Of a stretch of DNA of 14,098 nucleotides, positions 2 to 14,098 are shown piece by piece. The stretch is from Elusimicrobiota bacterium. Lineage in GTDB: Bacteria; Elusimicrobiota; Elusimicrobia; F11. Both the position numbers and the translations under genes were made by a program. The notes under the pieces were generated by a model, which saw only the letters and a program-made list of their open reading frames with translations, was not told the origin of the DNA and ran no database searches. The first letter of the stretch is position 1. Each line of letters starts with the position of its first letter. The DNA is taken from NCBI GenBank assembly GCA_046153645.1, contig JBJXGI010000082.1:1-14098 (forward strand). Reading direction: 5' to 3'.

Positions 2-547
2 AAATGGGTGGAATGGATTTTTGGTTTATTTATAAATCAGAATATGCGTGAGCTTTCTCTTCGGTTAGGAAATAAAAATTTAGTGGTACCTGTTCAAGTT
101 AATCTAAATCAATTGTCAGCTTTGGCACGCTTATCGTCTAAGTTATCAAAGGATAGGAAGATTTTTGCAGTGGTTTCTTCTCAGTATGATTTTGATATGG
201 CGAAATTATGGTTGGGCAAGAATCCAGCTTTGTCCCAACAGATTGTTTTTGTTTTATCTTCAGATCCTTTCATTAATCAAAATGAAACAGTTTTTATTTC
301 TGAAATTTCATTGGAGTCTGTTTTGAATAGCATTATGAGAACCCAGAATATCTCTAAAGAGATGTTGGCGTTGGGCTTTTTTCCTCAGTTTCAGGTATTA
401 AAGACACCTTCGGTATCGCCAAACCTATCTTTGATTTATGGAATGGACCTGTTTCCACTTTTTGATTCATTACTTTCTGCGCCACTTGAGCTTCAAAATT
501 GGGAAAGAATTCGCTCCTTAGCTCAAGTGTTATCTTCACATGCTTAA
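2..547 (+). CDS. C-terminal part of a hypothetical protein (5'-truncated by the window edge), probably another member of the giant-protein family
   Basis: The frame is open from position 2 (AAA TGG GTG..., K-W-V-E-W), so the GTG at 8 in the ORF track is probably not the real start. The stop is TAA at 545-547. Alternating beta/alpha pattern (NLVVPVQV, KIFAVVSS, QIVFVLSS). It ends in PLELQNWERIRSLAQVLSSHA, which resembles the tail of the next protein. Confidence 0.75.
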   Translation, partial: KWVEWIFGLFINQNMRELSLRLGNKNLVVPVQVNLNQLSALARLSSKLSKDRKIFAVVSSQYDFDMAKLWLGKNPALSQQIVFVLSSDPFINQNETVFISEISLESVLNSIMRTQNISKEMLALGFFPQFQVLKTPSVSPNLSLIYGMDLFPLFDSLLSAPLELQNWERIRSLAQVLSSHA

Positions 548-614
548 TAAAATTAAAAAAATAATATTGGTTGGTTTGTTGATTGTTTTTTCGTGGACGA
601 ATATTTTAACGGCC
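540..614 (+). other. Predicted Sec signal peptide of the giant protein
   Basis: MLNKIKK (basic n-region), IILVGLLIVFSW (hydrophobic h-region), TNILTA-A (polar c-region ending in small residues). No lipobox Cys and no twin-Arg. Confidence 0.7.
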
Positions 615-3600
615 GCTTTAAATTCAAATCCTTATTTTAGAGTTCATGATTTTAAAAAGAACGGGGCTTCTCCCGTTATTATTTTTCAAGATATTCACGG
701 GCATCCAGAAGCTCAAAGGAATATTGCCACTTCTTTTTCTTTGTTTCGTGATAAACGCCCGATTGGAGTTGAAGGCGGGACTGGGGAATTTGATTTTAGT
801 TTATACCACGAACTTCCAAACTCAAAAATAACGAAAGATATCGCTTCTCAATTTTTAAATGAAAATAAAATAGCCGCAGCAGAATATTATGGGCTTACGA
901 TGCCTTCAGAAAAGCTTATTGGAATTGAAACGTCAGCTCTTTATTTACAACATGTAGATGTTTATAAAAAAGCGAATTTAAACCAACAGAAAATAAAAAA
1001 AGAATTGAATGGCTGGGGCCAAGAATTACTGGAAAAAGAGAAAAAATATTATCCCTCCTCGTTATTTAACTTAATCCAAGTTCAGGAGTCTTATTTAAAT
1101 AAAAAACAATCGCTCACTGAGTACATAAAAGTCTTATCAGAATTTGAGGATCTTCCGTTGTCGTTGGAGACTTTTTTAGTAACGGTTCAATTAGAAAAAG
1201 GTCTTAATTTTAAAAATATTCAAAATGATAAAGATCGTTTTATCGAACAGCTAGCAGTCCAAATGTCATCAAAAGAGAAGTTGTTTATTCGTGAGTTGGT
1301 TCTTCAAGTTTCCAATGCCGAAGGTAAATGGAGTGGGCCTTTTTCAATTTTGTTTAGATATGCAGCGGATCGTGGTATTAAGCTGAATAAATTTCCACAT
1401 TTGAATGATTATTACCGTTATTTGTCATTGGTTGATTCACTTAAAATGGAATCTATCTATGATGAATTAAGTCTTCATGAAGAAAGCGTTTTTGAATCTT
1501 TATTAAAGAAATGCCCTCCTTTAGCCCATAATATTTTTAAGGCGCGTCAGTATAAACTTTTACTTCAAAAGCTTGCCCAGTTTGAAATGACACCGCAAGA
1601 ATGGGATAAATGGGAAAAAAGAAAAGCCCCGTTAGATCTTAATTCAATGAAACATATTCCCATTTCTCTCAGAGATCAATCTTTACTAGCCCCATTTGAA
1701 GATTTTTACCGTATTGCGGATTTAAGAAGTGCCGACATGGTCAAACATATCATTAAAAATAAATTAGGACGGGTTGTCTTAGGGGGCTTTCATACACAAA
1801 AAATAGAAAACCTTTTAAAAGCTAATAACGTGGATTATTCAGTGGTTCGCCCTAAAATAACCAGTCTTAAGTTTGAAGATACCAATATTTATTTAAGCGC
1901 GTTTGCCCAAAAAGAATCATTCTTGGAAAAGTTTTTTCTTCGGTGGAAGTTGTTTTTGTCTCATCCTATCCAAATGGGGACAGCACCACTTTTAAAAATG
2001 GGCGATCCTGTTGGAGAGTTTGAAGAGGTGTGGATGAATAAAGCCAATAAGCAAGAAAAGAAAATAGCCAAACCGCTATTTCAAAAAATAAAGTCAACAA
2101 CTCGAAAAATTTTATTGAGACCTTCTGTTAAAGAAACATTTCAATATTTAAGTGTTTTTTCTGCTGCACTTGTCACGTTAAACCCAACCCTTTTGGTTTT
2201 GGGGGTTTTCATTCAGATGTATTTATTTCCTCGAAATCATCCTCGAGATGGGGGGAGAATATATCGAACTGTTATGAGTGTTTTTGTTCTTTTATCCGCC
2301 ACAGGGGTATTTTTGACAGCAAAAGATTTATTTCAAAATGAGTGGGTCGCTTTATCATTCGCAATAATTCTTATTATGGTCTGGCACGAATGGCACATTC
2401 GAACCTATCAAAACGTTATTAAGTCTCGATCAATGAAAAGCCCTTTAACTCCTATATCCAAAATTTATATGGCTATTCATAAATTATTTTTTGGTGATAA
2501 CATTTTTCTCTTATCGGTTGAGAAATTTAAGCCTATTGATGTGTCTAAATTTGATTTTGATGTCGATATTATGAGTGATGAGGAATTTGGGGCTCTCCTT
2601 TTTTTAGTTCGATTGGAAAATATAGAGAGTGTCATAAATTTAGTTTCATTCACTGAGCAGTATTATGAATTGATTGAGAAAACAAAAAATACCAAACGGA
2701 AAGCTGAGTTGGAAGTTGTTTTTGCAGATGGGATTGATATTCTTAGTAGAAAACTTGACGAGGTAGGATCGTCGGGAGAGTTAAAAATACGTTTTGACAG
2801 AATGAAAGAAAAAGCACTTGGCATGCCCCGATCATTTTCTTTGGTAGATAACGTGATCAAATATCCATCAATTATATTGAACTTGGTTAACCAACTAGAT
2901 GATAGACAGTTCTCTTATTTTTTAAAAGCCATTACGGATGCCAATCCTCCTGATTTCAATGTTCATTTGCTTATTCTTGAAAATCTGATGGAAGCTATAA
3001 AACTCGATTCAAGTAATTTAATAAAGATGAAATTGCTTGGAGTATTTACTAATAAATTTCATGCGGCGATGGCGTACTTGGCAAAAAATGAAAAATTTTA
3101 TTCAGATGGAAATATTGACCGAATTGAAAAATTGTTAACTTTTGCTTCGGATCAATGGATTGGATTAATTCATGAGGATCCCGATTTAATTAGAACCAAG
3201 TCTGTTTATATAGATGTCTTGGTTAAATATTTAAAATTAGGCCATAAATTAGGTTTTGAAAATAAAATAGCTGAAAAGTTTTATCCGAGGATTCGTTCTT
3301 TATTAGTTTATGAAAATAAGCAATTTCCAAACGTTTATAATGCTTTACTTAAAGTAGTTGGGATGACGCCGCAGTTGATAGCGAAAAAATCAGATTTTTC
3401 AGTATTGCAGGATATTTTAGACCGTGAATTTAGGGATTTTTTACCAGCGCGAGAAGAAGGGATGGGCCCTCTCCCAGGATTTATTTTGGTTTCTGCCCCA
3501 GGCTTGCTGGAAAAAGGTGATTTGCGACCTTTTTATGAAGTGTTATTCGTAATTTCAAAAAATTTCCAAGAACTTCATCAACTTTCTGCAGAACGTAAAA

Positions 3601-6600
3601 CAGCATTAGTGGGATCTATTGAGCTTATTGCCGGTATTTTCACTTTAATAAATCGACCTGAAATAAGTGAATTACTTCAGGTTTTTATAGAAGAGTTAAA
3701 AAAAGACCGGCCAGATCTATCACAGATCGTGTCTAAATCTCTTTTGTTGTCCTATCAACTAAAAGACCCCAAAATAACTCAAAACATCTTGATGGGTTTT
3801 TATCATTGGATCAATACCAATAGTGACGGTTATGAAGGCGTTAAAATTATTTCTGATTTTGAAGATACAAAAAAACCTTTCTGTTTTTATAATAAAGCGT
3901 TTGAAAAATGTTTTGATGGGTTAACGAATGAGGAATTTCAACCATTTATTAAATTCCATATTGAAGGTGCGCTTAATTTTCTTATTTTTAAAAATAATGA
4001 TTCATATTTAGGGCAAATTAAATTTGGACTTCAGGAATACCTTGAAAAACTAGTTGTATATGATGGACGCGTGCATTTTTCTTTAATGGGTATTTTGGAG
4101 GCAGTCGAGGCGTATCCTGCAAATTATTTGGGTAACACTTTGTCTGAATATTTATATTCCTTAACAGCCCCTTTTTTGAATGTTGATTGGATTGATAAAT
4201 TCCCAGCTGAAGTATTCAAAATGTCCCAATATGTTTTAAAACTTTCGGTGAGTAAAAAAAGTAACCTGCCACAATTGTATTTCATTTATTCGGAGTCGGC
4301 TAAAAAAGCATCCCAATGGAATATCGCGCTTTATGATGGGAAGCAAAGTTATGTCGCTATTAACTTTTCCCGTTTAACCAAAAATCTTACCCCTCAAGAA
4401 TTAGAACTTTTTAATTATGATTTTATTCCATTCCTTTTTGATCTTTACCGAGATAGGTCTTATTCATTGGTGTTAAGTTATCTTTCGGCTTATTTATCTT
4501 TTTTAGAAAAAAAATCTGAATTTAAAAAGTCTCTCTCAAATCGAAATAAGGCTATTCTGGGTATTTTGTGGGAAAACTCACAAATTAAACGTGAGAGCAG
4601 CTCTCCAGATGAACAAGGTCTCAAAAGAGTGATCGATGCCATTTATTTATTGTTAAGTGATGATGATCGAACTCTTATTCAGGAAAAGATAGTAAAAAGA
4701 CTGTTCATGGATTATCTCATTGAACTTGCCATAAAAAAATCTAACCTCAAATATATATCCGTTGCTCAATTGATATTTAAAGATTTGTCTTCATCGACAT
4801 CTGAGGGATTTTCGACAAGATCATTTCCACTCCTAAATGGTTTGGAAATACCTGGTGACCAGGATTTATCAACGCTTAACCCATTTTTACCTGCTGTGAT
4901 CAAACAAGACGTTGTTGAAAGAAATGGTGAGCGGGAGATACTAAACGTTCCTATTTTTCCCATTGTTGATGAAGTTGATGAAATTTTGTTGGTAACCAAA
5001 AAGTCTCAAATCAACGCGGCTAATAAGAAAGAAGGTGGCGATAATAATTCGGTTCATGAAAACTGGGAGCCTTCAGAAATAGAAAGCATTTCTATTTATT
5101 CTTCTTCCCGCTTAGAAAAAGAAATTTGGAAAAGTCTTCATAGTAAAGACCCTTTAAGTGGATTAGCCCGAATAAAGAAAGATTTGGTTGAGAAAACCCC
5201 TTTTTTCCCATGGGTTAGTAAGTATATTTCTGTGATAACTCTTATCGAGTTAGGATTGAATAAAGAAACCCCTGATTTAGACGAAGTTTTTAAATGTTTG
5301 CATAAGTTGGTATATGATTCTCCCTACTCATTAGCATATTTCGAATCAATATCTTTTTTTATGCGAGACCTTGTTCATATTGATTGGCAATTTCTTAAGC
5401 CCGTTATTAATAAGTTCATGTTATTTCAAGGTAAAAATATTTATATGACAGATGCTGAAAAAATGATGTTGTCATTTTTTTACTTTCGATTGCTGGGTCG
5501 CATAGAAGATGATGAATTAAGCTCTTGGCTCAAACCTGCCTCAGAAGAATTACGACTTTTTCTTAATCTCTTTTTAGATAAAAAAAATAAAAATATTGTG
5601 TTTAATCCAGCGCCATATCAGCCAATGAAAAATATTGAAACGATTTCTTATGTTTTAGGTATCCCATTTTCTTCAGATGACTATAAATTCGACGATTCTG
5701 AAAATGAATTTATGTCAACTTGGCCGGGAGTTCTTGAAATTAAAAACGAATTGAAGCTTGTTTATAGAGTGATGTCAGGATCAATAGAAAAAGGAAATAT
5801 TGAGAGAATTTCCACGGATAGAGTAAAAAATATAGCGGCAAAAACTGTCTTTTCCGATTTGTTGGAAAAAGTTTTACTTATGGGGGAATTAGGCAGTTCT
5901 CGGGATTATATTCTTGCTTTAAGAGTTGCAGATTTGTATTCGAGATTATTTTCAACAGGGAAAGGGATAGAAAACTTAACCTTTTATTCTCATGCTTTTT
6001 ATCCCGCTGTGTCTCATCTAGACCCTACGGGACGATGGTTTTTGGATGCAATTTCAGTTTCCAGCCAGATGCTTAAGTTAATTCAAAAAAGTTCTCCTTC
6101 TGTTTTTCGTGATGGATTGATAGCAAGTGTTGATGAAATACTTGAGAAGTGCGAAACATTTGCAAAGAACTTGGGCACTTATTGTTCTGCTCTTTTATCG
6201 GAAGAAGTTTCTCGAGTTATATTGAGTGGAAAAATAGATCAAGATGTGAATTTCATTGTTGAAATAAACAAAGGTAGTTTTTTAGATTTTTACTTAAGTA
6301 TGTTTAAGTGGGAAATAACAACAATAATAAAAATGTTGAAAAGAGGGATAGGGCAAAATGGTGTTTTTCGAGATTTTTTAAGAGGGAATTTTATCTTTGC
6401 CATTTTTCTGCTAAACCCTACTGAATCTTGGGCCCATTCGCTTAAAAGATTAAGAAATGAAATTTCTGCTGAAAATGGTTTTTCTGATCAAGAACTGAGA
6501 ATTGCCAAAATTTTTGAATCGTTTTTTTCATCGGAAAAATCTTCTAAAGAAAAATTGGAGAGTTTGGTTTATTATGTTGAATTATCTTTTCAAAATAGTA

Positions 6601-9600
6601 GAACTAAAGTCGCGGAAGGGTTTCTGTTCCCGTTTGCAATGCTGTTAGCTCTCGTAAAAGAAGAAGACCCTGAATTTGTTAGGACTGTTTCTTTCCCTGT
6701 TTTTGAAAAATTAGCTCAAAAAAATGATGACCCAGAATTTAAGTTGAAAGTCAGTTTTCTTAAATATGTACTTGATAATTTCAACGATCCTCAAAAATTA
6801 CTACAAAAAATTGAAGAGAAAGATTTCTGCAAGCTTGATCCAGGGGAAAAGTTAGATTTAAAACTAATATTAGCGTATAAGTTGCAAATACCAGAAGCAA
6901 AACAATACATGCTGGATTTTTTAAATGGAGCCCCATCGTATTTTCAAAATGATTTTTCATTACATAACTTGCTAACCTCCGGTTCAATTTTTCCTTTATT
7001 TAAAGATGCTATTTGGGCTTACACTAAAAATTACTTTCAAGATAATGATACTTCATGGAAAACTCTCTCAGGGTTTAGCGAAAAAAACATGATCCGATTA
7101 TTGGATTTGTCAGTTCTCTTGGGTTACACAGAAGCGGGAATTTTAAGGTATACACTAATAAAGACTGATGATGAAAGAAGACGATTATTCAATGTAATGA
7201 CGCCAGATCAATGGTTTTATTTGATTGCAGAACTCATCAAAGAAAAGAAAATCAAGGAGGCTGAAGAACAATTGAAAAATGCGCAGGTTCATCTGAGGGG
7301 AATAGAATATCCAGAAACATTATTGAGACAGGTAGAGGCTTTACTAAAGCCCTATCAAGAAGCACGGATTCTTATTCCTAAAACGGCTGAACAATTAAGA
7401 GGTTTATTAAGGTTGGAGAACTTGGGAACATTAGATGAAGTTCTTCGTTCCGTTCCCAGGTATTTGTTTCCCTATTTCAATGATCCTAAGACTGTGAATG
7501 AAATTGAATCTTTCATTTCAACTCTGACTTACTTGGTTGATTTTTTAAAACGAATAGATTCAATTACGGATGATGAGTCCATTAAAAAGTTATTATCGGA
7601 TATAAGAAGTAGTCCTCTCAATAAAACTCATTCTAATATTGCCAAGTTTCTTGTTAAGGTCGTTGAAGGAATAGGTTCTTTTGAAAATGAAATGATCAAG
7701 GGAGATTTATCACAAGCTGAGCAAGCGCTTTTTGAGTTAGATGGAATCCTGACCCAGCCAAATCTTCGTATTCTAAGGGTTGATAAAAGTAAAGATCGAG
7801 TTAAAAAATCAAAAGAAGAAATTGACGGCGCTTACCTTTTGTTAAAAGATGCGGCGACTCAAAAAAATTGGTTTGGAGACAATGGGGTTTATCCTTTAAT
7901 TCAGTCTATATTTAAAAGATCAAAAAAACACAAGCCAACTCGGGATTGGATACTGCAATTTTCAACTGAATGGCTAAAACAAAGGCAAAAAGAAATTGGG
8001 TTTAACGAGCTGAAACTTATTCAAAACCTGGTTACCATTATTCTTGAAACAAAAGTATTTTTAAGTGGAGAAGAAGGTTCCCTTCGAACTATTTTTAAAG
8101 GATTTATTAAAGTTCGAGGGGTACAAGTATTAAGAGATTTGCAATCCAACTTATCTTTTTTACAGCTTAAGCGAGCGGCTCAGGAATACAAACAAGAGAA
8201 AGCGGGTCAAGTTGACACTCCTTTTGGGCAAGTAAAAACTGTCCCCATTTATCAGTTTTCATCAACGGGTTTTCAAGTTTATGTGGATGAAAGGACCAGG
8301 AAAAAATATCTTATTATCAAAGAACTCAATTTGCCAGAGCCCAACGGTAAAAAAATGGCAGTTTTTTCAGCAAGTGATGGAAGTCTATTCACCAAAACCA
8401 ATGTGGGTATTATTAAGGATTACCAAGTTGTTTTAAAAATTCCTTCCAAAAAACCAATGCGGGTCCCTGTTCTGTTTGTGGGGATGAGAGATCCCAAGGG
8501 GAGTATTTCAGAATATGCAAAGTTCAAAACTTTCCCTCCAGGGATTATTTTCGAAATAGATCCCAGGTATTCAAATGATTTTGATTTGCTCACTGTAAGT
8601 GAGATTAATCGGTCAACATCAAGTCATCTTTTGCGATTTATTGATGATTTAAAATTAGTTGCCCAGATTCGTTCGCTTGAAAAAGTTGTTGATAGGGTTG
8701 GTCTTAATTTGGATGTTCCCAATACAGGAAACCCTTTGTTAAATGAAATGCTGGGGCTTCAAATTAATTTGGCCAATCTGGAAGGAGTGTTTTCTAAAGG
8801 AAAAGATAATGGGAAAGGGAAAACGACCCCTACCGATAATCCTAGAATTCCGGAATCTTCTCTTCAATTTGCTAACGACAAGTTAGACCCGTTTCAACAG
8901 AGTGCTGTTAAAAAAATTATTAAAAAAGTTAAAAAAGGCCAACCAGGATTTATGGTGGTTCAAGGGTCTCCGGGGAGCGGGAAAACAACATTATCTGCTG
9001 AAGAAGCTCATCAATTAACCAAAGAAGGACATATTGTTGTTGCCTTAAGCCACACACATTTTGCGGCCAATAATTTGGCCAAAAAACTTATTAATAAAAT
9101 TCCTTTTATTAGAGCTGCGGCGGTGGATAAAAAAATTGTGAAGTCACTGCGTGGTTATCACTCTCGCCGACTAAAAGATTTGTGGGAATTTATTGAAAAA
9201 AGAGAAATGGCTTTAAAATTAAGGCAAACTCCCCCTGGTTTTGTTTATATTTCAACCGCGGATGGGCTTTTTGGCGATCCTATTTTTAAATTATTTGATT
9301 TGTATTTGACCGGTGCGCCTATGAACGACGTGAGAGACTATTATTCTTATTTGTCCAACATGTTGATGAAAGAAAAAATTATCTTTGATAAAAATGGTGA
9401 AGGAGAAAAATCTCGGTCTTATACACCAATTGTTTTGTGTTTAGAAGAGAGTGGGCAATTAACCAAGGCCGAAGAATTGGCCGCCATGGAATTACTGCGA
9501 GCGGACGTTCTGTATTCTATAGGAGATCATGATCAACTGCCTCCCTATGGTGCAAACCTATCCGATAAAAAAGAAATTTTAGATCAAATGAAACAGGGGC

Positions 9601-11372
9601 TAAAAATTTTTAAAACCGATATTTCATTGGATGCTGATTTTTGGGTCTCTCATGGAGTTTATGTAACTCCAGATGATTTAGAAAAACTATTTGCGAAGGA
9701 TTCTCCCTATTTGACATCAACCAGAGTGTCATTTTTAGAAGAAATGGCCGAATCGACTATTCGATGGATGGAAATATTGGAATCATTGTTGGGGAAAAAT
9801 AATGGATCTGTTTCTGCGGATTCTTTTGAGAAATTGCGAATGGTTTATCGAGGACCATGGTATTTTGCTGATCTCTTAAATGGACTCATGCCCGATTCAT
9901 CTCATGGTGAGTTGTTAACTTATGAAACAGCAGAAAATAGAACACCCCTTCACGAAGACTCACTCATGATTATTCATGAACCAAAAGGAATCGAAGAAAA
10001 AACCGAAGAAGGGTCTCTCCGAAATTTTGCTGAAGCTGGACGTGTGGTTCAAGCCGTCACTCATTATTTAAACACAAAGCTCTTGAGGCCGGAGGAAGGA
10101 GAATTTCCTTTTTATGAACCAAAAGATATTTTAATTATTACCCCCTACAGCGCGCAAAACGCTTTGATTGGAGAGGTGTTAACCGTTGTCGCGGTGCTAA
10201 ACGACCTTACCACTAAGCAAGTATTAAGTGGAACCGAATGGGATTTGTTTCAGGAAATTTTAGAAAATCATCTTGATAGTGCTCAGGGAAGAAATATCGT
10301 TGATGCAGACGTCGATAAAATTTGGAATTTATTGGATGATGTCTATAACGGCAAAGGGATTCGAACCAAAAAAGTTGAAGATATTTTTACATTGCTTCAA
10401 CCTCTTTATGATCTTAACCTTCATGAACCTCATACGAGAAAAATTTCTCGGGATGATGTGAAAAATATATTTAAGGGAGAAGAAGAGGAAGTTGAAGAAG
10501 AAAAGAAAAATCATATTGAAGTAAGAACCGTTGATAGTTCACAAGGGCATGAGGGGCCTGTGGTAATTTTATCCATGGTCAGATCAAATAAACCTAATGA
10601 AATTGGATTCCTAGCGTCAAAAGAAGGCATAAGTCGGTTTTATGTAGCAGCCTCTCGATTTCAAGAAAGAATGGCCGTCGTTGGTAATTTTGTTACCCTT
10701 GAAAAGTACGGGATTTATAAAAGACTCATTCAAACCATTCGAAGAATTTACAAATCTGTTGGTTTAGAGTTTAAAGCCTTTAAGTCACCTGGAGAACCCC
10801 ATGTAAAAACAACGAAAAGTCTGCGTGCTGCTTGGGATGTTTCTTTCGGGAATGAAAATTTAGACGAACTTTTTGACAAAAATGTAGCCGGACCTGTCGA
10901 ATCTCTTATTTTCCTTTCAATGTTGGGTTATGGTTTTACTGTTCTTTTTACGCAAGGTTTCACGCTGGGCGGAATTCTTTTTCTTCTTGGCGGGCTTCTG
11001 ATTCAGGGTGTTGTTTTTCCAGCATTACACCACATAAAATCCAATAAAACTAAGCAACGTTCTTTTAAAAACGATGTCATCTTTAGTTGGAAAGTCATTT
11101 TTCTTTACGTGGTTTCCTATACAGGGTTTATTCTTATAGGAGTTTCAGTTGAATGGGCATTTTGGTTGTCACTCATCGCACCCAGTTTGTTTCACAACCG
11201 TGACAATAGAGCTGTTCTTCGACGGCTTAAAAGCATAGTTCCTGAGCCAGAGAGTTTAGGCGTTGGAGCCGTTGAACCTGTTTCGCCGTTAATAATTCCT
11301 CTTCCTGGCGTTGGTCCGGTTGATTTTGATCGAGGGCGTTATCGATTTGAGCTTCTAGAAAAAGCGGCTTAA
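540..11372 (+). CDS. Giant (3610 aa) multidomain signal-peptide/membrane protein with an N-terminal ChaN/TIKI-like domain and a C-terminal UPF1/DNA2-like SF1 helicase
   Basis: Uninterrupted 10,833-nt ORF in AT-rich DNA. ATG at 540 overlaps the upstream stop. It has an N-terminal signal peptide, ordered SF1 helicase motifs at about 8880-10660, and two hydrophobic multi-TM blocks. Confidence 0.93.
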   Translation: MLNKIKKIILVGLLIVFSWTNILTAALNSNPYFRVHDFKKNGASPVIIFQDIHGHPEAQRNIATSFSLFRDKRPIGVEGGTGEFDFSLYHELPNSKITKDIASQFLNENKIAAAEYYGLTMPSEKLIGIETSALYLQHVDVYKKANLNQQKIKKELNGWGQELLEKEKKYYPSSLFNLIQVQESYLNKKQSLTEYIKVLSEFEDLPLSLETFLVTVQLEKGLNFKNIQNDKDRFIEQLAVQMSSKEKLFIRELVLQVSNAEGKWSGPFSILFRYAADRGIKLNKFPHLNDYYRYLSLVDSLKMESIYDELSLHEESVFESLLKKCPPLAHNIFKARQYKLLLQKLAQFEMTPQEWDKWEKRKAPLDLNSMKHIPISLRDQSLLAPFEDFYRIADLRSADMVKHIIKNKLGRVVLGGFHTQKIENLLKANNVDYSVVRPKITSLKFEDTNIYLSAFAQKESFLEKFFLRWKLFLSHPIQMGTAPLLKMGDPVGEFEEVWMNKANKQEKKIAKPLFQKIKSTTRKILLRPSVKETFQYLSVFSAALVTLNPTLLVLGVFIQMYLFPRNHPRDGGRIYRTVMSVFVLLSATGVFLTAKDLFQNEWVALSFAIILIMVWHEWHIRTYQNVIKSRSMKSPLTPISKIYMAIHKLFFGDNIFLLSVEKFKPIDVSKFDFDVDIMSDEEFGALLFLVRLENIESVINLVSFTEQYYELIEKTKNTKRKAELEVVFADGIDILSRKLDEVGSSGELKIRFDRMKEKALGMPRSFSLVDNVIKYPSIILNLVNQLDDRQFSYFLKAITDANPPDFNVHLLILENLMEAIKLDSSNLIKMKLLGVFTNKFHAAMAYLAKNEKFYSDGNIDRIEKLLTFASDQWIGLIHEDPDLIRTKSVYIDVLVKYLKLGHKLGFENKIAEKFYPRIRSLLVYENKQFPNVYNALLKVVGMTPQLIAKKSDFSVLQDILDREFRDFLPAREEGMGPLPGFILVSAPGLLEKGDLRPFYEVLFVISKNFQELHQLSAERKTALVGSIELIAGIFTLINRPEISELLQVFIEELKKDRPDLSQIVSKSLLLSYQLKDPKITQNILMGFYHWINTNSDGYEGVKIISDFEDTKKPFCFYNKAFEKCFDGLTNEEFQPFIKFHIEGALNFLIFKNNDSYLGQIKFGLQEYLEKLVVYDGRVHFSLMGILEAVEAYPANYLGNTLSEYLYSLTAPFLNVDWIDKFPAEVFKMSQYVLKLSVSKKSNLPQLYFIYSESAKKASQWNIALYDGKQSYVAINFSRLTKNLTPQELELFNYDFIPFLFDLYRDRSYSLVLSYLSAYLSFLEKKSEFKKSLSNRNKAILGILWENSQIKRESSSPDEQGLKRVIDAIYLLLSDDDRTLIQEKIVKRLFMDYLIELAIKKSNLKYISVAQLIFKDLSSSTSEGFSTRSFPLLNGLEIPGDQDLSTLNPFLPAVIKQDVVERNGEREILNVPIFPIVDEVDEILLVTKKSQINAANKKEGGDNNSVHENWEPSEIESISIYSSSRLEKEIWKSLHSKDPLSGLARIKKDLVEKTPFFPWVSKYISVITLIELGLNKETPDLDEVFKCLHKLVYDSPYSLAYFESISFFMRDLVHIDWQFLKPVINKFMLFQGKNIYMTDAEKMMLSFFYFRLLGRIEDDELSSWLKPASEELRLFLNLFLDKKNKNIVFNPAPYQPMKNIETISYVLGIPFSSDDYKFDDSENEFMSTWPGVLEIKNELKLVYRVMSGSIEKGNIERISTDRVKNIAAKTVFSDLLEKVLLMGELGSSRDYILALRVADLYSRLFSTGKGIENLTFYSHAFYPAVSHLDPTGRWFLDAISVSSQMLKLIQKSSPSVFRDGLIASVDEILEKCETFAKNLGTYCSALLSEEVSRVILSGKIDQDVNFIVEINKGSFLDFYLSMFKWEITTIIKMLKRGIGQNGVFRDFLRGNFIFAIFLLNPTESWAHSLKRLRNEISAENGFSDQELRIAKIFESFFSSEKSSKEKLESLVYYVELSFQNSRTKVAEGFLFPFAMLLALVKEEDPEFVRTVSFPVFEKLAQKNDDPEFKLKVSFLKYVLDNFNDPQKLLQKIEEKDFCKLDPGEKLDLKLILAYKLQIPEAKQYMLDFLNGAPSYFQNDFSLHNLLTSGSIFPLFKDAIWAYTKNYFQDNDTSWKTLSGFSEKNMIRLLDLSVLLGYTEAGILRYTLIKTDDERRRLFNVMTPDQWFYLIAELIKEKKIKEAEEQLKNAQVHLRGIEYPETLLRQVEALLKPYQEARILIPKTAEQLRGLLRLENLGTLDEVLRSVPRYLFPYFNDPKTVNEIESFISTLTYLVDFLKRIDSITDDESIKKLLSDIRSSPLNKTHSNIAKFLVKVVEGIGSFENEMIKGDLSQAEQALFELDGILTQPNLRILRVDKSKDRVKKSKEEIDGAYLLLKDAATQKNWFGDNGVYPLIQSIFKRSKKHKPTRDWILQFSTEWLKQRQKEIGFNELKLIQNLVTIILETKVFLSGEEGSLRTIFKGFIKVRGVQVLRDLQSNLSFLQLKRAAQEYKQEKAGQVDTPFGQVKTVPIYQFSSTGFQVYVDERTRKKYLIIKELNLPEPNGKKMAVFSASDGSLFTKTNVGIIKDYQVVLKIPSKKPMRVPVLFVGMRDPKGSISEYAKFKTFPPGIIFEIDPRYSNDFDLLTVSEINRSTSSHLLRFIDDLKLVAQIRSLEKVVDRVGLNLDVPNTGNPLLNEMLGLQINLANLEGVFSKGKDNGKGKTTPTDNPRIPESSLQFANDKLDPFQQSAVKKIIKKVKKGQPGFMVVQGSPGSGKTTLSAEEAHQLTKEGHIVVALSHTHFAANNLAKKLINKIPFIRAAAVDKKIVKSLRGYHSRRLKDLWEFIEKREMALKLRQTPPGFVYISTADGLFGDPIFKLFDLYLTGAPMNDVRDYYSYLSNMLMKEKIIFDKNGEGEKSRSYTPIVLCLEESGQLTKAEELAAMELLRADVLYSIGDHDQLPPYGANLSDKKEILDQMKQGLKIFKTDISLDADFWVSHGVYVTPDDLEKLFAKDSPYLTSTRVSFLEEMAESTIRWMEILESLLGKNNGSVSADSFEKLRMVYRGPWYFADLLNGLMPDSSHGELLTYETAENRTPLHEDSLMIIHEPKGIEEKTEEGSLRNFAEAGRVVQAVTHYLNTKLLRPEEGEFPFYEPKDILIITPYSAQNALIGEVLTVVAVLNDLTTKQVLSGTEWDLFQEILENHLDSAQGRNIVDADVDKIWNLLDDVYNGKGIRTKKVEDIFTLLQPLYDLNLHEPHTRKISRDDVKNIFKGEEEEVEEEKKNHIEVRTVDSSQGHEGPVVILSMVRSNKPNEIGFLASKEGISRFYVAASRFQERMAVVGNFVTLEKYGIYKRLIQTIRRIYKSVGLEFKAFKSPGEPHVKTTKSLRAAWDVSFGNENLDELFDKNVAGPVESLIFLSMLGYGFTVLFTQGFTLGGILFLLGGLLIQGVVFPALHHIKSNKTKQRSFKNDVIFSWKVIFLYVVSYTGFILIGVSVEWAFWLSLIAPSLFHNRDNRAVLRRLKSIVPEPESLGVGAVEPVSPLIIPLPGVGPVDFDRGRYRFELLEKAA
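672..1860 (+). other. ChaN/TIKI(TraB)/EreA-superfamily-like domain with a large helical insertion
   Basis: Ordered motifs: IIFQDIH (H53, 696), IGVEGG (E78, 771), LIGIE, RSADM (R396, 1725) and VVLGGFH (H418, 1791), followed by helix-strand (IENLLKANNVDYSVVRP). This matches the H...E...R-x-x-x-M...G-x-x-H signature of that superfamily. Confidence 0.55.
2118..2414 (+). other. Multi-pass membrane module 1 (3-4 TM; degenerate CPBP/Abi-like motifs)
   Basis: Hydrophobic stretches FQYLSVFSAALVTLNPTLLVLGVFIQMYLF, VMSVFVLLSATGVFLTA and WVALSFAIILIMVW. Motifs PSVKE (E532), FPRNH (F563/H567) and HEWHI (H616). Confidence 0.6.
8130..10760 (+). other. Superfamily 1 helicase domain, UPF1/DNA2/NAM7-like (AAA_11 + AAA_12 type)
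   Basis: Q motif LDPFQQSAV (8883). Walker A QGSPGSGKTT (8961-8990). Ia SHTHFAANNL (9048). II LEESGQ (9441). III GDHDQLPP (9522). IV YR (9846). NFAEA. IITPYSAQ (about 10134-10157). V TVDSSQGHE (10527). SMVRSN..IGFL. VI RFYVAASR (10635-10658). A putative stalk helix and beta-rich 1B segment lie at about 8130-8650. Confidence 0.92.
10884..11210 (+). other. Multi-pass membrane module 2 (about 4 TM; degenerate CPBP/Abi-like motifs)
   Basis: Hydrophobic stretches LIFLSMLGYGFTVLF, GFTLGGILFLLGGLLIQGVVF, VIFLYVVSYTGFILIGV and WAFWLSLIAPSLF. Motifs AGPVE (E3454), FPALH (F3493/H3497) and HNRDN (H3552/N3556). Confidence 0.65.
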
Positions 11373-11373
11373 A

Positions 11374-11410
11374 CCCTCACCCTGGCCCTCTCCCCTGCGG
11401 GGAGAGGGGA
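11374..11410. repeat. BoxC-like extragenic palindromic element (possible terminator or mRNA-stabilising hairpin)
   Basis: CCCTCACCCTGG-CCCTCTCCCC-TGC-GGGGAGAGGG-GA. Perfect 10-bp stem (11386-11395 with 11399-11408) preceded by a pyrimidine-rich tail, starting 2 nt after the giant gene's stop. It matches the widespread CCCTCACCC..CCCTCTCCC..GGGAGAGGG repeat pattern. Only one copy is in the window and there is no strong U-tract. Confidence 0.75.
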
Positions 11411-11433
11411 ATCCTCTTTCAACGCAGTTTTTC

Positions 11434-11504: not shown

Positions 11505-13379
11505 ATGCCAATACACCACATGATTAAACATCCCAACGATATTAGAAATTTAAAACCTGAATTATTAACTGAAGTCGCAAAGGAAATTCGCCAAAAAATT
11601 ATTCAAGTTACTTCTCAAACAGGGGGGCATTTAGGCGCTTCTTTGGGGTGTACGGATTTGGCGGTCGCGCTTCATTATGTGTTTGAATCTCCAAAAGATA
11701 AATTAATTTGGGACACTGGCCACCAAGCTTACGCGCATAAACTTTTAACCGGACGTTGGGACCAATTTCATACCTTAAGACAATTTGGCGGAATCAGTGG
11801 CTTTTTAAACCGTTCAGAATCTGAGCATGATGTATTTGGAGCCGGACATGCCTCAACTGCTATTTCAGCCGCCGTTGGTTTTGCAGCCGCTCGTGACGTG
11901 CAAAAACAAGACCATAAAGTGGTTGCCATCGTCAATGATGGTTCTATCACTGGAGGAATGTCATTTGAAGGACTACAAAATGCCGGTCATTTGGGAACTG
12001 ATATGTTGGTCGTCTTAAATGACAACCAAATGTTTATCTCTCATAGAGTAGGGGCTGCGGGCGCATTTTTAGCTAAGTTTTTAACAGGGGGATTGGTGAA
12101 GTCGTTAGAAGCCCGTGTGGAAAAATTTCTGGCTCGGACGACTTTTTGGGGATCACACATTCTCCGTATTGCTAAACGAGTCAAAGTACTTTTATTTCCT
12201 GGTCTTTTGTTTGAAGAAATGGGCTTTTCATATCTTGGTCCTGTGGATGGGCATGACTTACCCAAACTCATTGAAGTTCTCCAGGCGATTAAAAAAATAA
12301 AAGGGCCTACACTTCTTCATGTTGTAACGAAAAAAGGCCGAGGGTATGAAAAAGCGGAGTCTGACCCTATTAAATATCATGGCGTCACTCGTTTTAATCC
12401 TGAAACCGGCGAAATGCAAAAAGCGCCCGATGGACCTCCTTCCTATACCAAAGTGTTTGGTCAAACCTTATGCAAGCTTGCCAAAGATGATGAAAAAATT
12501 GTGGGAATCACCGCTGCTATGCCAGAAGGAACTGGGATGGATATGTTCCGCGATAAATTTAAAGAACGATATTATGATGTTGGTTTGGGAGAACAACATG
12601 CCGTTACTTTTGCGGCAGGACTTGCCGCTGGGGGGACAAAGCCCGTTGTCGCGATTTATTCCACTTTTCTTCAACGCGCTTTTGATCAAATTGAGCATGA
12701 CGTTGCCTTGCAAAAATTACCCGTTGTGTTTTGTCTAGATCGTGGCGGCCTCGTGGGGGATGACGGTGCCACTCATCATGGAGTATTTGATCTTTCCTAT
12801 TTAAGAATGATTCCCAATATTGCCGTCATGGCTCCAAAAGATGAAAATGAACTTCAACATATGCTCAAAACAGCTTTAAATTATAAACAAGGGCCTGTGG
12901 CGATTCGTTACCCTCGTGGAGCGGGTTATGGTGTTGCCTTAGACACAACCTTAAACCTTATTCCCTGGGGAAAAGGGGAAGTGCTTCAAGAAGGGGAAGA
13001 AACAGCCATTTTTGCCATTGGAAATATGGTGCAACCCTCAGTAGAGGCGGCAAAAATGCTTTCCACTCAAGGGATTTCTGTGAAAGTGATTAATGCCCGA
13101 TTTGTTAAACCTCTTGATAAAAATTGGCTTTTAGACACCTTAAAAGGGATTAAAACTGTCCTTACTGTTGAAGAAAATGTGATTGCTGGCGGTTTTGGAA
13201 GCGCCATAAAAGAATATTTAGAAGGAACAGATATTAAAGTTTACAGCCTTGGAATTCCGGACCGATTTATTGAGCATGGAACTCAACCCAAATTGAGAAG
13301 TTTGGTAGGTCTCACCACAGAAAACATCGCTGAATCCGTCAAAAAGATTCACGCCTCAAACTGGCAACCTGTTGTTTGA
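11505..13379 (+). CDS. dxs: 1-deoxy-D-xylulose-5-phosphate synthase (MEP pathway, TPP-dependent)
   Basis: 624 aa with DXS hallmarks GGHLGASLG, WDTGHQAYAHKLLTGR, FGAGHASTAISAA, TPP motif (N)DG...LNDN, GPVDGHD, TKKGRGY, ITAAMPEGTG, EQHAVT, IYSTFLQRAFDQ, GDDGATHHG, IRYPRG and NARFVKPLD. Confidence 0.98.
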   Translation: MPIHHMIKHPNDIRNLKPELLTEVAKEIRQKIIQVTSQTGGHLGASLGCTDLAVALHYVFESPKDKLIWDTGHQAYAHKLLTGRWDQFHTLRQFGGISGFLNRSESEHDVFGAGHASTAISAAVGFAAARDVQKQDHKVVAIVNDGSITGGMSFEGLQNAGHLGTDMLVVLNDNQMFISHRVGAAGAFLAKFLTGGLVKSLEARVEKFLARTTFWGSHILRIAKRVKVLLFPGLLFEEMGFSYLGPVDGHDLPKLIEVLQAIKKIKGPTLLHVVTKKGRGYEKAESDPIKYHGVTRFNPETGEMQKAPDGPPSYTKVFGQTLCKLAKDDEKIVGITAAMPEGTGMDMFRDKFKERYYDVGLGEQHAVTFAAGLAAGGTKPVVAIYSTFLQRAFDQIEHDVALQKLPVVFCLDRGGLVGDDGATHHGVFDLSYLRMIPNIAVMAPKDENELQHMLKTALNYKQGPVAIRYPRGAGYGVALDTTLNLIPWGKGEVLQEGEETAIFAIGNMVQPSVEAAKMLSTQGISVKVINARFVKPLDKNWLLDTLKGIKTVLTVEENVIAGGFGSAIKEYLEGTDIKVYSLGIPDRFIEHGTQPKLRSLVGLTTENIAESVKKIHASNWQPVV

Positions 13380-14098
13380 ATTTTTCCTCTAAAAAAGAAC
13401 GCCTCGATCAACTTGTCTCTCAACAAGAAGAAATACCTCTTTCTAAGGCTCAGGCCATTATCATGGCCGGTCAAATTGCTGTCGATGGAAAAGTAATCAA
13501 TAAAAGCGGTACATTGATTGGCTCTGATCAATCTATTGAGTTTATTCCTTCTCAAAAATATGTCTCTCGAGGCGGTTTTAAGTTAGAGGGTGCGCTAGAT
13601 CATTTTCAAATCGATCCATTAAATAAAACTTGTCTTGATGTGGGATCTTCCACGGGTGGTTTTACGGATTGTTTGCTTCAAAGGGGAGCTTCTAGAGTTT
13701 ATGCAGTTGATGTGGGAAAAGCCCAATTAGATTTAAAGCTTCGTAAAGATGAGAGAGTTGTTTCAATAGAAGAAACTCATATAAAAGATTTACTTTTTTC
13801 TCAAATATCATCCGATATTTCATTGGTTGTTATTGATGTTTCTTTTATCTCTCTGGTTTCCGTTCTTTCTTACGTGAAAAATCTTGTAAAAAAAGACACA
13901 ATAGTGCTTTCCATGGTAAAACCTCAGTTTGAAGTAGAGCCCTCATTCTTGAGAAAGGGTGTTGTGTTAGATGAAAGTGTGAGGTTGTCTGCTGTTAAAA
14001 AAATTAGAGATTTTTCGTTAACGGCGGGATTTAAGTGTGAAGGAGAAAGTCTCTCCAAGCTGAAAGGACCGAAAGGAAATCAGGAATATTTTTTATAT
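13376..14098 (+). CDS. tlyA: TlyA family rRNA (cytidine-2'-O)-methyltransferase (S4 + FtsJ domains), 3'-truncated by the window edge
   Basis: Not in the ORF track; translated by hand from TTG 13376, which overlaps the dxs stop (TTGA). Sequence: MNFSSKKERLDQLV...AQAIIMAGQI...YVSRGGFKLEGALDHF...CLDVGSSTGGFTDCLLQRGASRVYAVDVG...IDVSFISL...MVKPQFE...KGVV...KGPKGNQEYFLY. Open for 241 codons to the edge. dxs-tlyA adjacency is common. Confidence 0.96.
   Translation, partial: MNFSSKKERLDQLVSQQEEIPLSKAQAIIMAGQIAVDGKVINKSGTLIGSDQSIEFIPSQKYVSRGGFKLEGALDHFQIDPLNKTCLDVGSSTGGFTDCLLQRGASRVYAVDVGKAQLDLKLRKDERVVSIEETHIKDLLFSQISSDISLVVIDVSFISLVSVLSYVKNLVKKDTIVLSMVKPQFEVEPSFLRKGVVLDESVRLSAVKKIRDFSLTAGFKCEGESLSKLKGPKGNQEYFLY

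Follow-up and report, generated by a model that had tools for sequence, protein, structure and literature searches.

Organization of the locus

The window analyzed here, the whole stretch of 14,098 nucleotides, is an entire contig of a 2.63-Mb genome with a completeness of 99.7%. Most of it is taken up by one giant gene, which is overlapped at its start by the end of another frame. The features, with their predicted assignments, are as follows.

2..547, forward strand: 5'-open frame that ends in Ala and overlaps the start of the giant frame (open reading frame list; tail profile E 0.027)
540..11372, forward strand: giant open reading frame of 3,610 aa, with the same layout in P0003, P0005, P0006 and G005:C76
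540..617, forward strand: signal-like leader, aa 1-26, with a basic start and a hydrophobic core (Kyte-Doolittle; cleavage only putative)
666..1964, forward strand: head of TIKI/ChaN fold, aa 43-475, with a helical insert of ~300 aa and residues D51, H53, E78, R396 and H418 (alignment and model)
2100..2399, forward strand: membrane module 1, aa 521-620, CPBP/Rce1-like, with E532, H567 and H616 and without the motif-3 Asn (hydrophobicity and homology)
2427..8489, forward strand: body of ~2,000 aa, of no known family and highly diverged (profile comparison)
8544..10739, forward strand: IGHMBP2/UPF1-like superfamily 1B helicase with an upstream stalk, aa 2669-3400 (Pfam, NCBIfam, PDB, tree)
10875..11213, forward strand: membrane module 2, aa 3446-3558, CPBP/Rce1-like, with E3454, H3497, H3552 and N3556 (homology and model)
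11214..11372, forward strand: short tail ending in Ala (terminal Ala common to the family)

We are confident of this anatomy, both in its parts and in their order. The leader and transmembrane segments named in a sequence-only reading of the same DNA correspond to hydrophobic stretches at aa 5-28, 536-620 and 3452-3550 in a Kyte-Doolittle scan, which finds none between aa 620 and 3452. The frame at 2..547 is probably the tail of another head-family gene, truncated at the contig end. Downstream of the giant gene, dxs follows after 132 bp and is itself followed by a gene for a TlyA-like methyltransferase, both of them housekeeping neighbors.

That the frame is an assembly chimera, or a decayed fusion without function, is largely refuted, and we give it almost no credence. 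Its body has no pairwise homologue in the 11 family genomes, and no contig from four DNA runs spans the gene, where depth is low, which would suit an artifact. However, four proteins of other assemblies (3,545-4,103 aa) repeat the order of head, membrane module, body, helicase and membrane module, so the frame is real; its 3,610 codons are open, and the motor and head residues are kept at ~27-30% identity. The 107 contig pieces, drawn from four runs of one biofilter study that may include the source sample and covering up to 30 of 30 bins, show neither joints nor indels and are nearly all 99% or more alike. G+C content is uniform across the gene.

A head of the TIKI/ChaN fold

The head has no sequence-level match to NCBIfam, and its profile reached at best E 0.015 against PDB sequences; a Foldseek search with the head model also returned no match. 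The model itself has a pLDDT of 87.6, and D51, H53, E78, R396 and H418, which are invariant in all 78 aligned heads, sit after strands in it. VIA Z scores for ChaN (2g5g), HopBA1 (5t09), Bcr135/136, EreC, TraB-family, PMT C2 and RRSP (5w6l) were, in that order, 8.7, 8.2, 7.7, 7.3, 6.3, 8.4, 6.1 and 5.5. These matches are modest (Z up to 8.7, rmsd 3.5-6.0, 135-174 residues aligned), and TIKI-superfamily members make up six of the top seven rows in one structure comparison and hold ranks 1, 2, 4 and 7 in another. Since the matches cluster in one superfamily, the modeled head is assigned to the TIKI/EreA/ChaN superfamily; together with the invariant residues of the H-E-R-H type, they bear out the ChaN/TIKI call made from the sequence.

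The residues essential to RRSP are Glu-x-His, Glu, Arg and His, that is, two His and two Glu plus an Arg (PMC6254334, excerpt). The head has the same order of acidic-x-His, Glu, Arg and His, a correspondence made by residue order rather than by residue-level superposition. It shares the parallel beta-sheet core of the TIKI/EreA/ChaN superfamily but differs in its helical insert of ~300 aa, in the Asp that replaces the first Glu, and in capping giant polytopic proteins that occur in dozens of copies per genome. By family knowledge, the head would be a hydrolase, most likely a peptidase.

Paired membrane modules

The twin membrane modules of the sequence-only reading proved to be two homologous four-helix units, linked to one another through the first module of a relative (BLAST E 1e-8). 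Their assignment as CPBP-like is supported by sequence comparison. One paralogue module passes the Pfam cut-off for PF02517 (Rce1-like) with E 1.4e-6, one of only 3 of 17 paralogue modules that match at all. A profile of those 17 modules compared with a profile of this protein's modules and those of four relatives gave a probability of 74% and E 2.8e-5 over 98 columns. The same paralogue profile was not significant against either single module of the 3,610-aa protein, and an iterated profile did not recover them; the link of these modules to CPBP runs through the relatives.

CPBP proteins are defined by the motifs EExxxR, a motif 2 His and a motif 3 His-x3-Asn/Asp (PMC13692083, PMC11980579; excerpts). 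Among 27 modules, the Glu and each of the two His are retained in 25, whereas EExxxR has its second Glu in 5 and its Arg in 3; both modules of the 3,610-aa protein have one Glu only in motif 1. Motif 2 and motif 3 are complete in module 2, which keeps the four residues used by Rce1, whereas module 1 has both His and no Asn. Module 2 is modeled as four helices with a pLDDT of 94. Compared with 48,161 chains, it matched Rce1 (4cad, residues 126-239) with Z 5.7 at rank 32 and SpdC (6u0o) with Z 5.8 at rank 24, not above unrelated bundles, and Foldseek found no match for the model. The modules have in common with the CPBP/Rce1-like intramembrane glutamic peptidases (PF02517) and the non-catalytic scaffolds SpdC and CflP four helices with Glu, His, His and Asn in order, the Asn missing from module 1. 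They differ in being the four-helix core alone, embedded twice, and in lacking the second Glu and the Arg of motif 1. By family knowledge, module 2 may cut within the membrane.

Membrane topology and an own-cell alternative

Positively charged residues are concentrated in the loop between helices B and C, where 74 of 423 residues are Lys or Arg, compared with 4 of 136 and 2 of 58 in the other two loops. The bias has the same direction in 27 of 27 modules, a set partly chosen by eye and not independent. Under the positive-inside rule, by which such loops stay in the cytoplasm, whatever follows a module should be cytoplasmic, which puts the body, helicase and tail inside. Each module would accordingly start and end on the cytoplasmic side, with body and helicase forming one large cytoplasmic loop. 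The charge bias after helix D places the helicase inside whichever way helix A lies, and it is this that supports the earlier suggestion that the helicase faces a cytoplasm.

The head, too, is probably on the cytoplasmic side, if helix A of module 1 crosses the membrane. The hydrophobicity scan detects no extra helix between head and module 1. The 20 residues before helix A hold six Lys/Arg and no Asp/Glu, although the excess is modest across 16 first modules (mean 3.4 Lys/Arg and 1.25 acidic residues, against a background of ~2.4 each). A head on the inside conflicts with a cleavable Sec signal that exports it. The conflict disappears if helix A of module 1 fails to span the membrane or if the leader is something other than a simple export signal.

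The first of these options leads to a platform within the producing cell, in which the head, carried out by the leader, works in the periplasm as a hydrolase or sensor, helix A does not cross, and the helicase lies in the producer's cytoplasm, perhaps freed by intramembrane cleavage as in anti-sigma signaling. A TraB/PrgY-like layout offers a model for such a periplasmic head. We consider this arrangement the main rival to the reading favored below, though less likely than that one. It agrees with the resemblance of the leader to a Sec signal, with the inside position of the helicase, with the stable orthologous layout, and with paralogues in which protease-like modules carry sigma-70, kinase-type or cNMP domains as tethered partners; PrsW-type peptidases fused to signaling domains exist (PMC3482391, excerpt), and many CPBP proteins are non-catalytic scaffolds (PMC13692083, excerpt). 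It is harder to reconcile with the Glu that opens helix A in 25 of 27 modules, with the four-helix fold of the homologous module 2, and with the basic flank of helix A, modest as its excess is. A conserved input with dozens of outputs would also reverse the usual pattern of sensor families.

The helicase and its orthologues

The UPF1-like helicase was recognized along with the other parts in the sequence-only reading, and database matches confirm it. The two-RecA core of AAA_11 and AAA_12 is present (Pfam AAA_12 E 3e-20; AAA_11 E 8e-5, below its cut-off), with K2815, E2969-E2970, Q2999, R3104, E3338 and R3373. In NCBIfam, the IGHMBP2 family matches with E 1e-22, below its cut-off, and the closest solved structures by sequence are IGHMBP2 (E 2e-51) and Upf1 (E 6e-46). 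It shares the Walker A Lys, catalytic Glu, motif III Gln and both Arg with IGHMBP2, UPF1, SEN1 and DNA2, and differs from them in inserts of 50-110 aa and in the membrane modules on both flanks. From its family, we infer an ATP-driven motor that travels along single-stranded RNA or DNA in the 5'-to-3' direction.

A word-index search with the helicase region, too insensitive for this purpose, recovered the query alone among 2,207 candidates. Strong matches (E <= 1e-21) among the 301 genomes of the class come from 4 of the 11 family genomes; in three the frame has 2,028-5,311 aa, and in the fourth it is truncated by the end of a contig. When 1.84 billion proteins were searched with a profile, three further ones of 3,545-3,671 aa turned up, each running from head through module, body and helicase to a second module. 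The layout is stable across genera. In a FastTree phylogeny of 149 of 156 helicase cores, whose sampling is biased because matches were picked with a clade profile, the 3,610-aa protein belongs to a 12-member clade (support 0.998). This clade is nested in a larger group of 52, mostly long proteins, of which 31 end in Ala and one is labeled Omnitrophota. The genome's own stand-alone helicase homologue is placed elsewhere in the tree, and on this ground we rejected its recent capture. Among other long proteins with the same type of helicase (P0010-P0036, 1,300-7,000 aa), many have a hydrophobic leader and terminal Ala and some carry TPR, endonuclease, methyltransferase or GGDEF domains; none matches the head profile.

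Over the seven columns counted, none of the 12 clade members has lost the Walker A Lys, the catalytic Glu, the motif III Gln or either of two Arg, and retention of motor residues at ~27-30% identity points to selection on ATP use. The first Walker B residue is Glu rather than the canonical Asp in 10 of 12 clade members, 37 of 52 in the wider group and 3 of 76 others, giving Glu-Glu (2969-2970) in the 3,610-aa protein. Active Aquarius and ZNFX1 probably also carry Glu-Glu, which the literature searched did not confirm.

A helicase of this type might instead serve as a membrane-tethered defense or decoy in the producer, sensing or stripping phage nucleic acid, with the family as a fast-evolving anti-phage repertoire. 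The 3,610-aa protein has the longest branch of its clade (1.4, compared with 0.18-0.85), the NCBIfam PLuB-system helicase gives a weak match (E 3e-14, far below its cut-off), and a UPF1-like helicase, ZNFX1, is antiviral (PMC13710534, excerpt). We nonetheless judge this role improbable: the neighbors are housekeeping genes, no nuclease domain was found in the 3,610-aa protein, and the co-regulation with exported and pilin-like genes described below would not be expected.

The body

The long body of the sequence-only reading, put there at about 1,900 aa, stands; its helical character is presumed, and the body is probably a helical scaffold. It shows no internal repeats and no Pfam match in any of five windows, while the bodies of relatives give only weak Pfam matches in 6 of 12 windows, including TPR at E 0.004 in one. 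Matches to the Atlas were weak, with low recognition. Against a profile of nine orthologue bodies, which are 20-30% alike, the body gave a weak but colinear match (E 3.4e-6; best of 21 controls E >= 2.3). The in-order match and the likeness among orthologues suggest that the whole layout has been inherited as a unit.

The head family and its cargo

The 3,610-aa protein is not the lone oddity it had seemed. A profile of 78 heads matches 48 of 2,948 frames of at least 100 aa in this genome, which amount to 106,760 aa or 12.2% of the DNA, and there are orthologues with the same layout. Heads occur in 50 of 301 genomes of the class, spread over six families (11 of 11, 11 of 12, 10 of 11, 15 of 15, 1 of 1 and 1 of 1 genomes), and none was found in the searched genomes of eleven other families of the class. 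Homologues that combine this head with other cargo, as the sequence-only reading predicted, are found among the paralogues: 13 of 39 scanned have Pfam matches at E <= 1e-5, and 26 have none. The cargo comprises AAA_5 (three, one with VWA), sigma-70 (three), histidine-kinase ATPase, cNMP-binding, methyltransferase, SNF2 and phosphoesterase domains and two propellers, different kinds that are of cytoplasmic type or propellers. One paralogue of 10,189 aa (L092/L093, G000:C86:11315-41881) has eight tandem membrane modules with His-Glu-x-x-His in addition to AAA_5/VWA. In L103, L105 and L117, sigma-70 domains lie between CPBP-like modules, some with several region-4 copies.

Three further traits run through the family. 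Most paralogue leaders have conserved polar positions and a Trp-Glu-Arg-Arg pro-region, from which the 3,610-aa protein largely departs, a leave-one-out leader profile reaching only E 0.35. Terminal Ala is found in 29 of 31 closed family frames, against 123 of 1,291 frames of at least 250 aa (9.5%). It is this residue that is common, rather than the conserved-looking tail described earlier, as the tail here has only ~52 aa and the family long-tail profile gives no match at E<1. Of 37 head genes, 18 have a perfect TTAA-N7-TTAA in the 100 bases before them, compared with 21 of 1,070 other frames. A matrix of this element, trained on head genes and therefore circular for them, also finds sites in front of pilin-like genes, a PorV-like gene and the genes of two other giant exported proteins. 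The element is absent upstream of the 540..11372 gene, whose start also overlaps the upstream stop; the gene is therefore probably read from the promoter of the upstream gene.

Pilin-like proteins of ~1,000 aa with the element upstream are encoded at L209:9279-15330 and L275:2919-6179, and PorV-like and type IX CTD-like proteins lie downstream of element matches at L212:1671-3659 and L210:4385-5686. In another genome, G003, a helicase giant is divergent from a similar pilin-like gene. At L208:9274-18829 and L271, a head gene and a type II secretion-like operon (GspE, pseudopilins, secretin) are transcribed away from each other, and the element lies between them. In G000 and G011 a head gene and the GspE orthologue point away from each other, in G008 and G006 they do not, and the G010 locus stops at a contig edge. 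A close secretin orthologue is found in only 5 of 11 family genomes, all 11 of which have heads; on both counts, we rejected the operon as an obligate export route.

A possible effector arsenal

We tentatively favor, at somewhat less than even confidence, a reading of the 3,610-aa protein as one member of a co-regulated arsenal of effectors that have a constant head and variable cargo and act in another cell. It would be a membrane-anchored polyprotein, with body and helicase looped into a cytoplasm between two four-helix modules, the head acting as a hydrolase, most likely a peptidase, and module 2 possibly cleaving within the membrane. Leader, head and terminal Ala would serve routing and processing, and the motor would act on the target's RNA, ribosomes or transcription complexes. 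Least certain in this account is that the arsenal is co-regulated and produced for encounters with prey or host cells, together with these roles of leader, head, terminal Ala and motor.

This role is suggested by the pairing of an unchanging front part with diverse cargo that acts in the cytoplasm, by the terminal tags and upstream element shared in the family, and by precedents for TIKI folds in effectors and for CPBP-related peptidases in polymorphic toxins. Polymorphic toxins have the same polarity, with a constant N-terminal peptidase and variable cargo, and CPBP-related PrsW peptidases release fused toxin domains (PMC3482391, excerpt). The head fold is common to HopBA1, PMT and RRSP, and the TTAA element also precedes giant exported and pilin-like genes. 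Giant proteins of Omnitrophota have been linked to prey attachment (PMC10066038, excerpt).

Several observations weigh against an effector. The head-fold matches, with Z of only 5.5-8.7, include harmless ChaN, TraB-family and esterase proteins; there is no adjacent immunity gene and no toxin family match in Pfam or NCBIfam; and the 540..11372 gene has neither the upstream element nor the leader pro-region. A layout this stable across genera is more suggestive of inherited machinery than of an exchanged toxin tip, and the genome, at 2.6 Mb and 99.7% completeness, also speaks against this role. To our knowledge, no route inserts a polytopic protein into another cell's membrane.

A wider form of the effector reading, which we consider doubtful, is a contact-dependent system in several Elusimicrobiota families and probably Omnitrophota. 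Dozens of co-regulated polyproteins with special leader and terminal Ala tags would be processed by the TIKI head and the CPBP-like modules and end in the prey membrane, their soluble parts facing the prey cytoplasm, where the UPF1-like motor would strip or unwind prey RNA.

Relation to known giant proteins

The head family shows the constant trafficking region and variable cargo of polymorphic toxins (PrsW-type, PVC metallopeptidase) and shares with them and with MARTX polyproteins the presence of protease-like modules between the parts. It differs in having no recognized toxin domain, immunity gene, or RHS or RTX repeat, and in a cargo that is here an ATP-driven motor between two membrane anchors. 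The earlier term MARTX-like holds as an analogy; Pfam and NCBIfam give no RTX repeat or cysteine protease family match at E <= 1. The host is Elusimicrobiota-like and not a member of Omnitrophota, the lineage given as an example in that reading: among the dxs matches listed, the closest, at 79% identity, belong to two Elusimicrobia/Elusimicrobiota MAGs. The Omnitrophota 'Archaeovorins' share a signal, many membrane helices, scattered enzyme domains, and proposed self-cleavage and predation, but have at least 30,000 aa, about one copy per genome, a SecA-like helicase and C39/S8 peptidases, compared with 3,610 aa and a superfamily 1B helicase here (10.1101/2023.11.21.568195, excerpt). The available text of that preprint makes no mention of TIKI, CAAX or M50.

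Giant proteins have been noted in Elusimicrobiota without family assignment (10.1101/2023.11.21.568195, PMC11573180, PMC10066038, PMC12057145, PMC13710534; excerpts), and those of Elusimicrobiota and Omnitrophota are a recognized gap, most being without assigned function. A search of the accessible literature found no description of the head family or of the architecture; nor did it find a membrane-tethered UPF1-like motor in bacteria. The 3,610-aa protein and its orthologues form a conserved subfamily with a helicase, within a family of giant modular membrane proteins that is apparently undescribed. That family takes up 12% of a small genome and has a readable grammar of leader, TIKI head, protease-like membrane units, cargo, terminal Ala and upstream element. 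Its helicase member offers small expressible pieces with clear assays, and resolving its topology conflict, in which an export-like leader precedes a head that probably lies on one side with the cargo, would tell an effector system apart from own-cell signaling.

Other features near the gene

In two relatives, a polyprenyl-synthase-like gene lies immediately 5' of dxs. In this genome, that gene is on a separate contig and the giant gene takes the place 5' of dxs (window 11505-14098; L020, L024, L213), suggesting an insertion or rearrangement. Directly 3' of the giant-gene stop, at window 11374-11411, is a G+C-rich hairpin element with 24 further matches in the genome. Copies lie within several head-family genes, where they seem to add in-frame Pro/Gly/Arg inserts, and hairpin-like elements of a similar kind are also present in contigs of other organisms.
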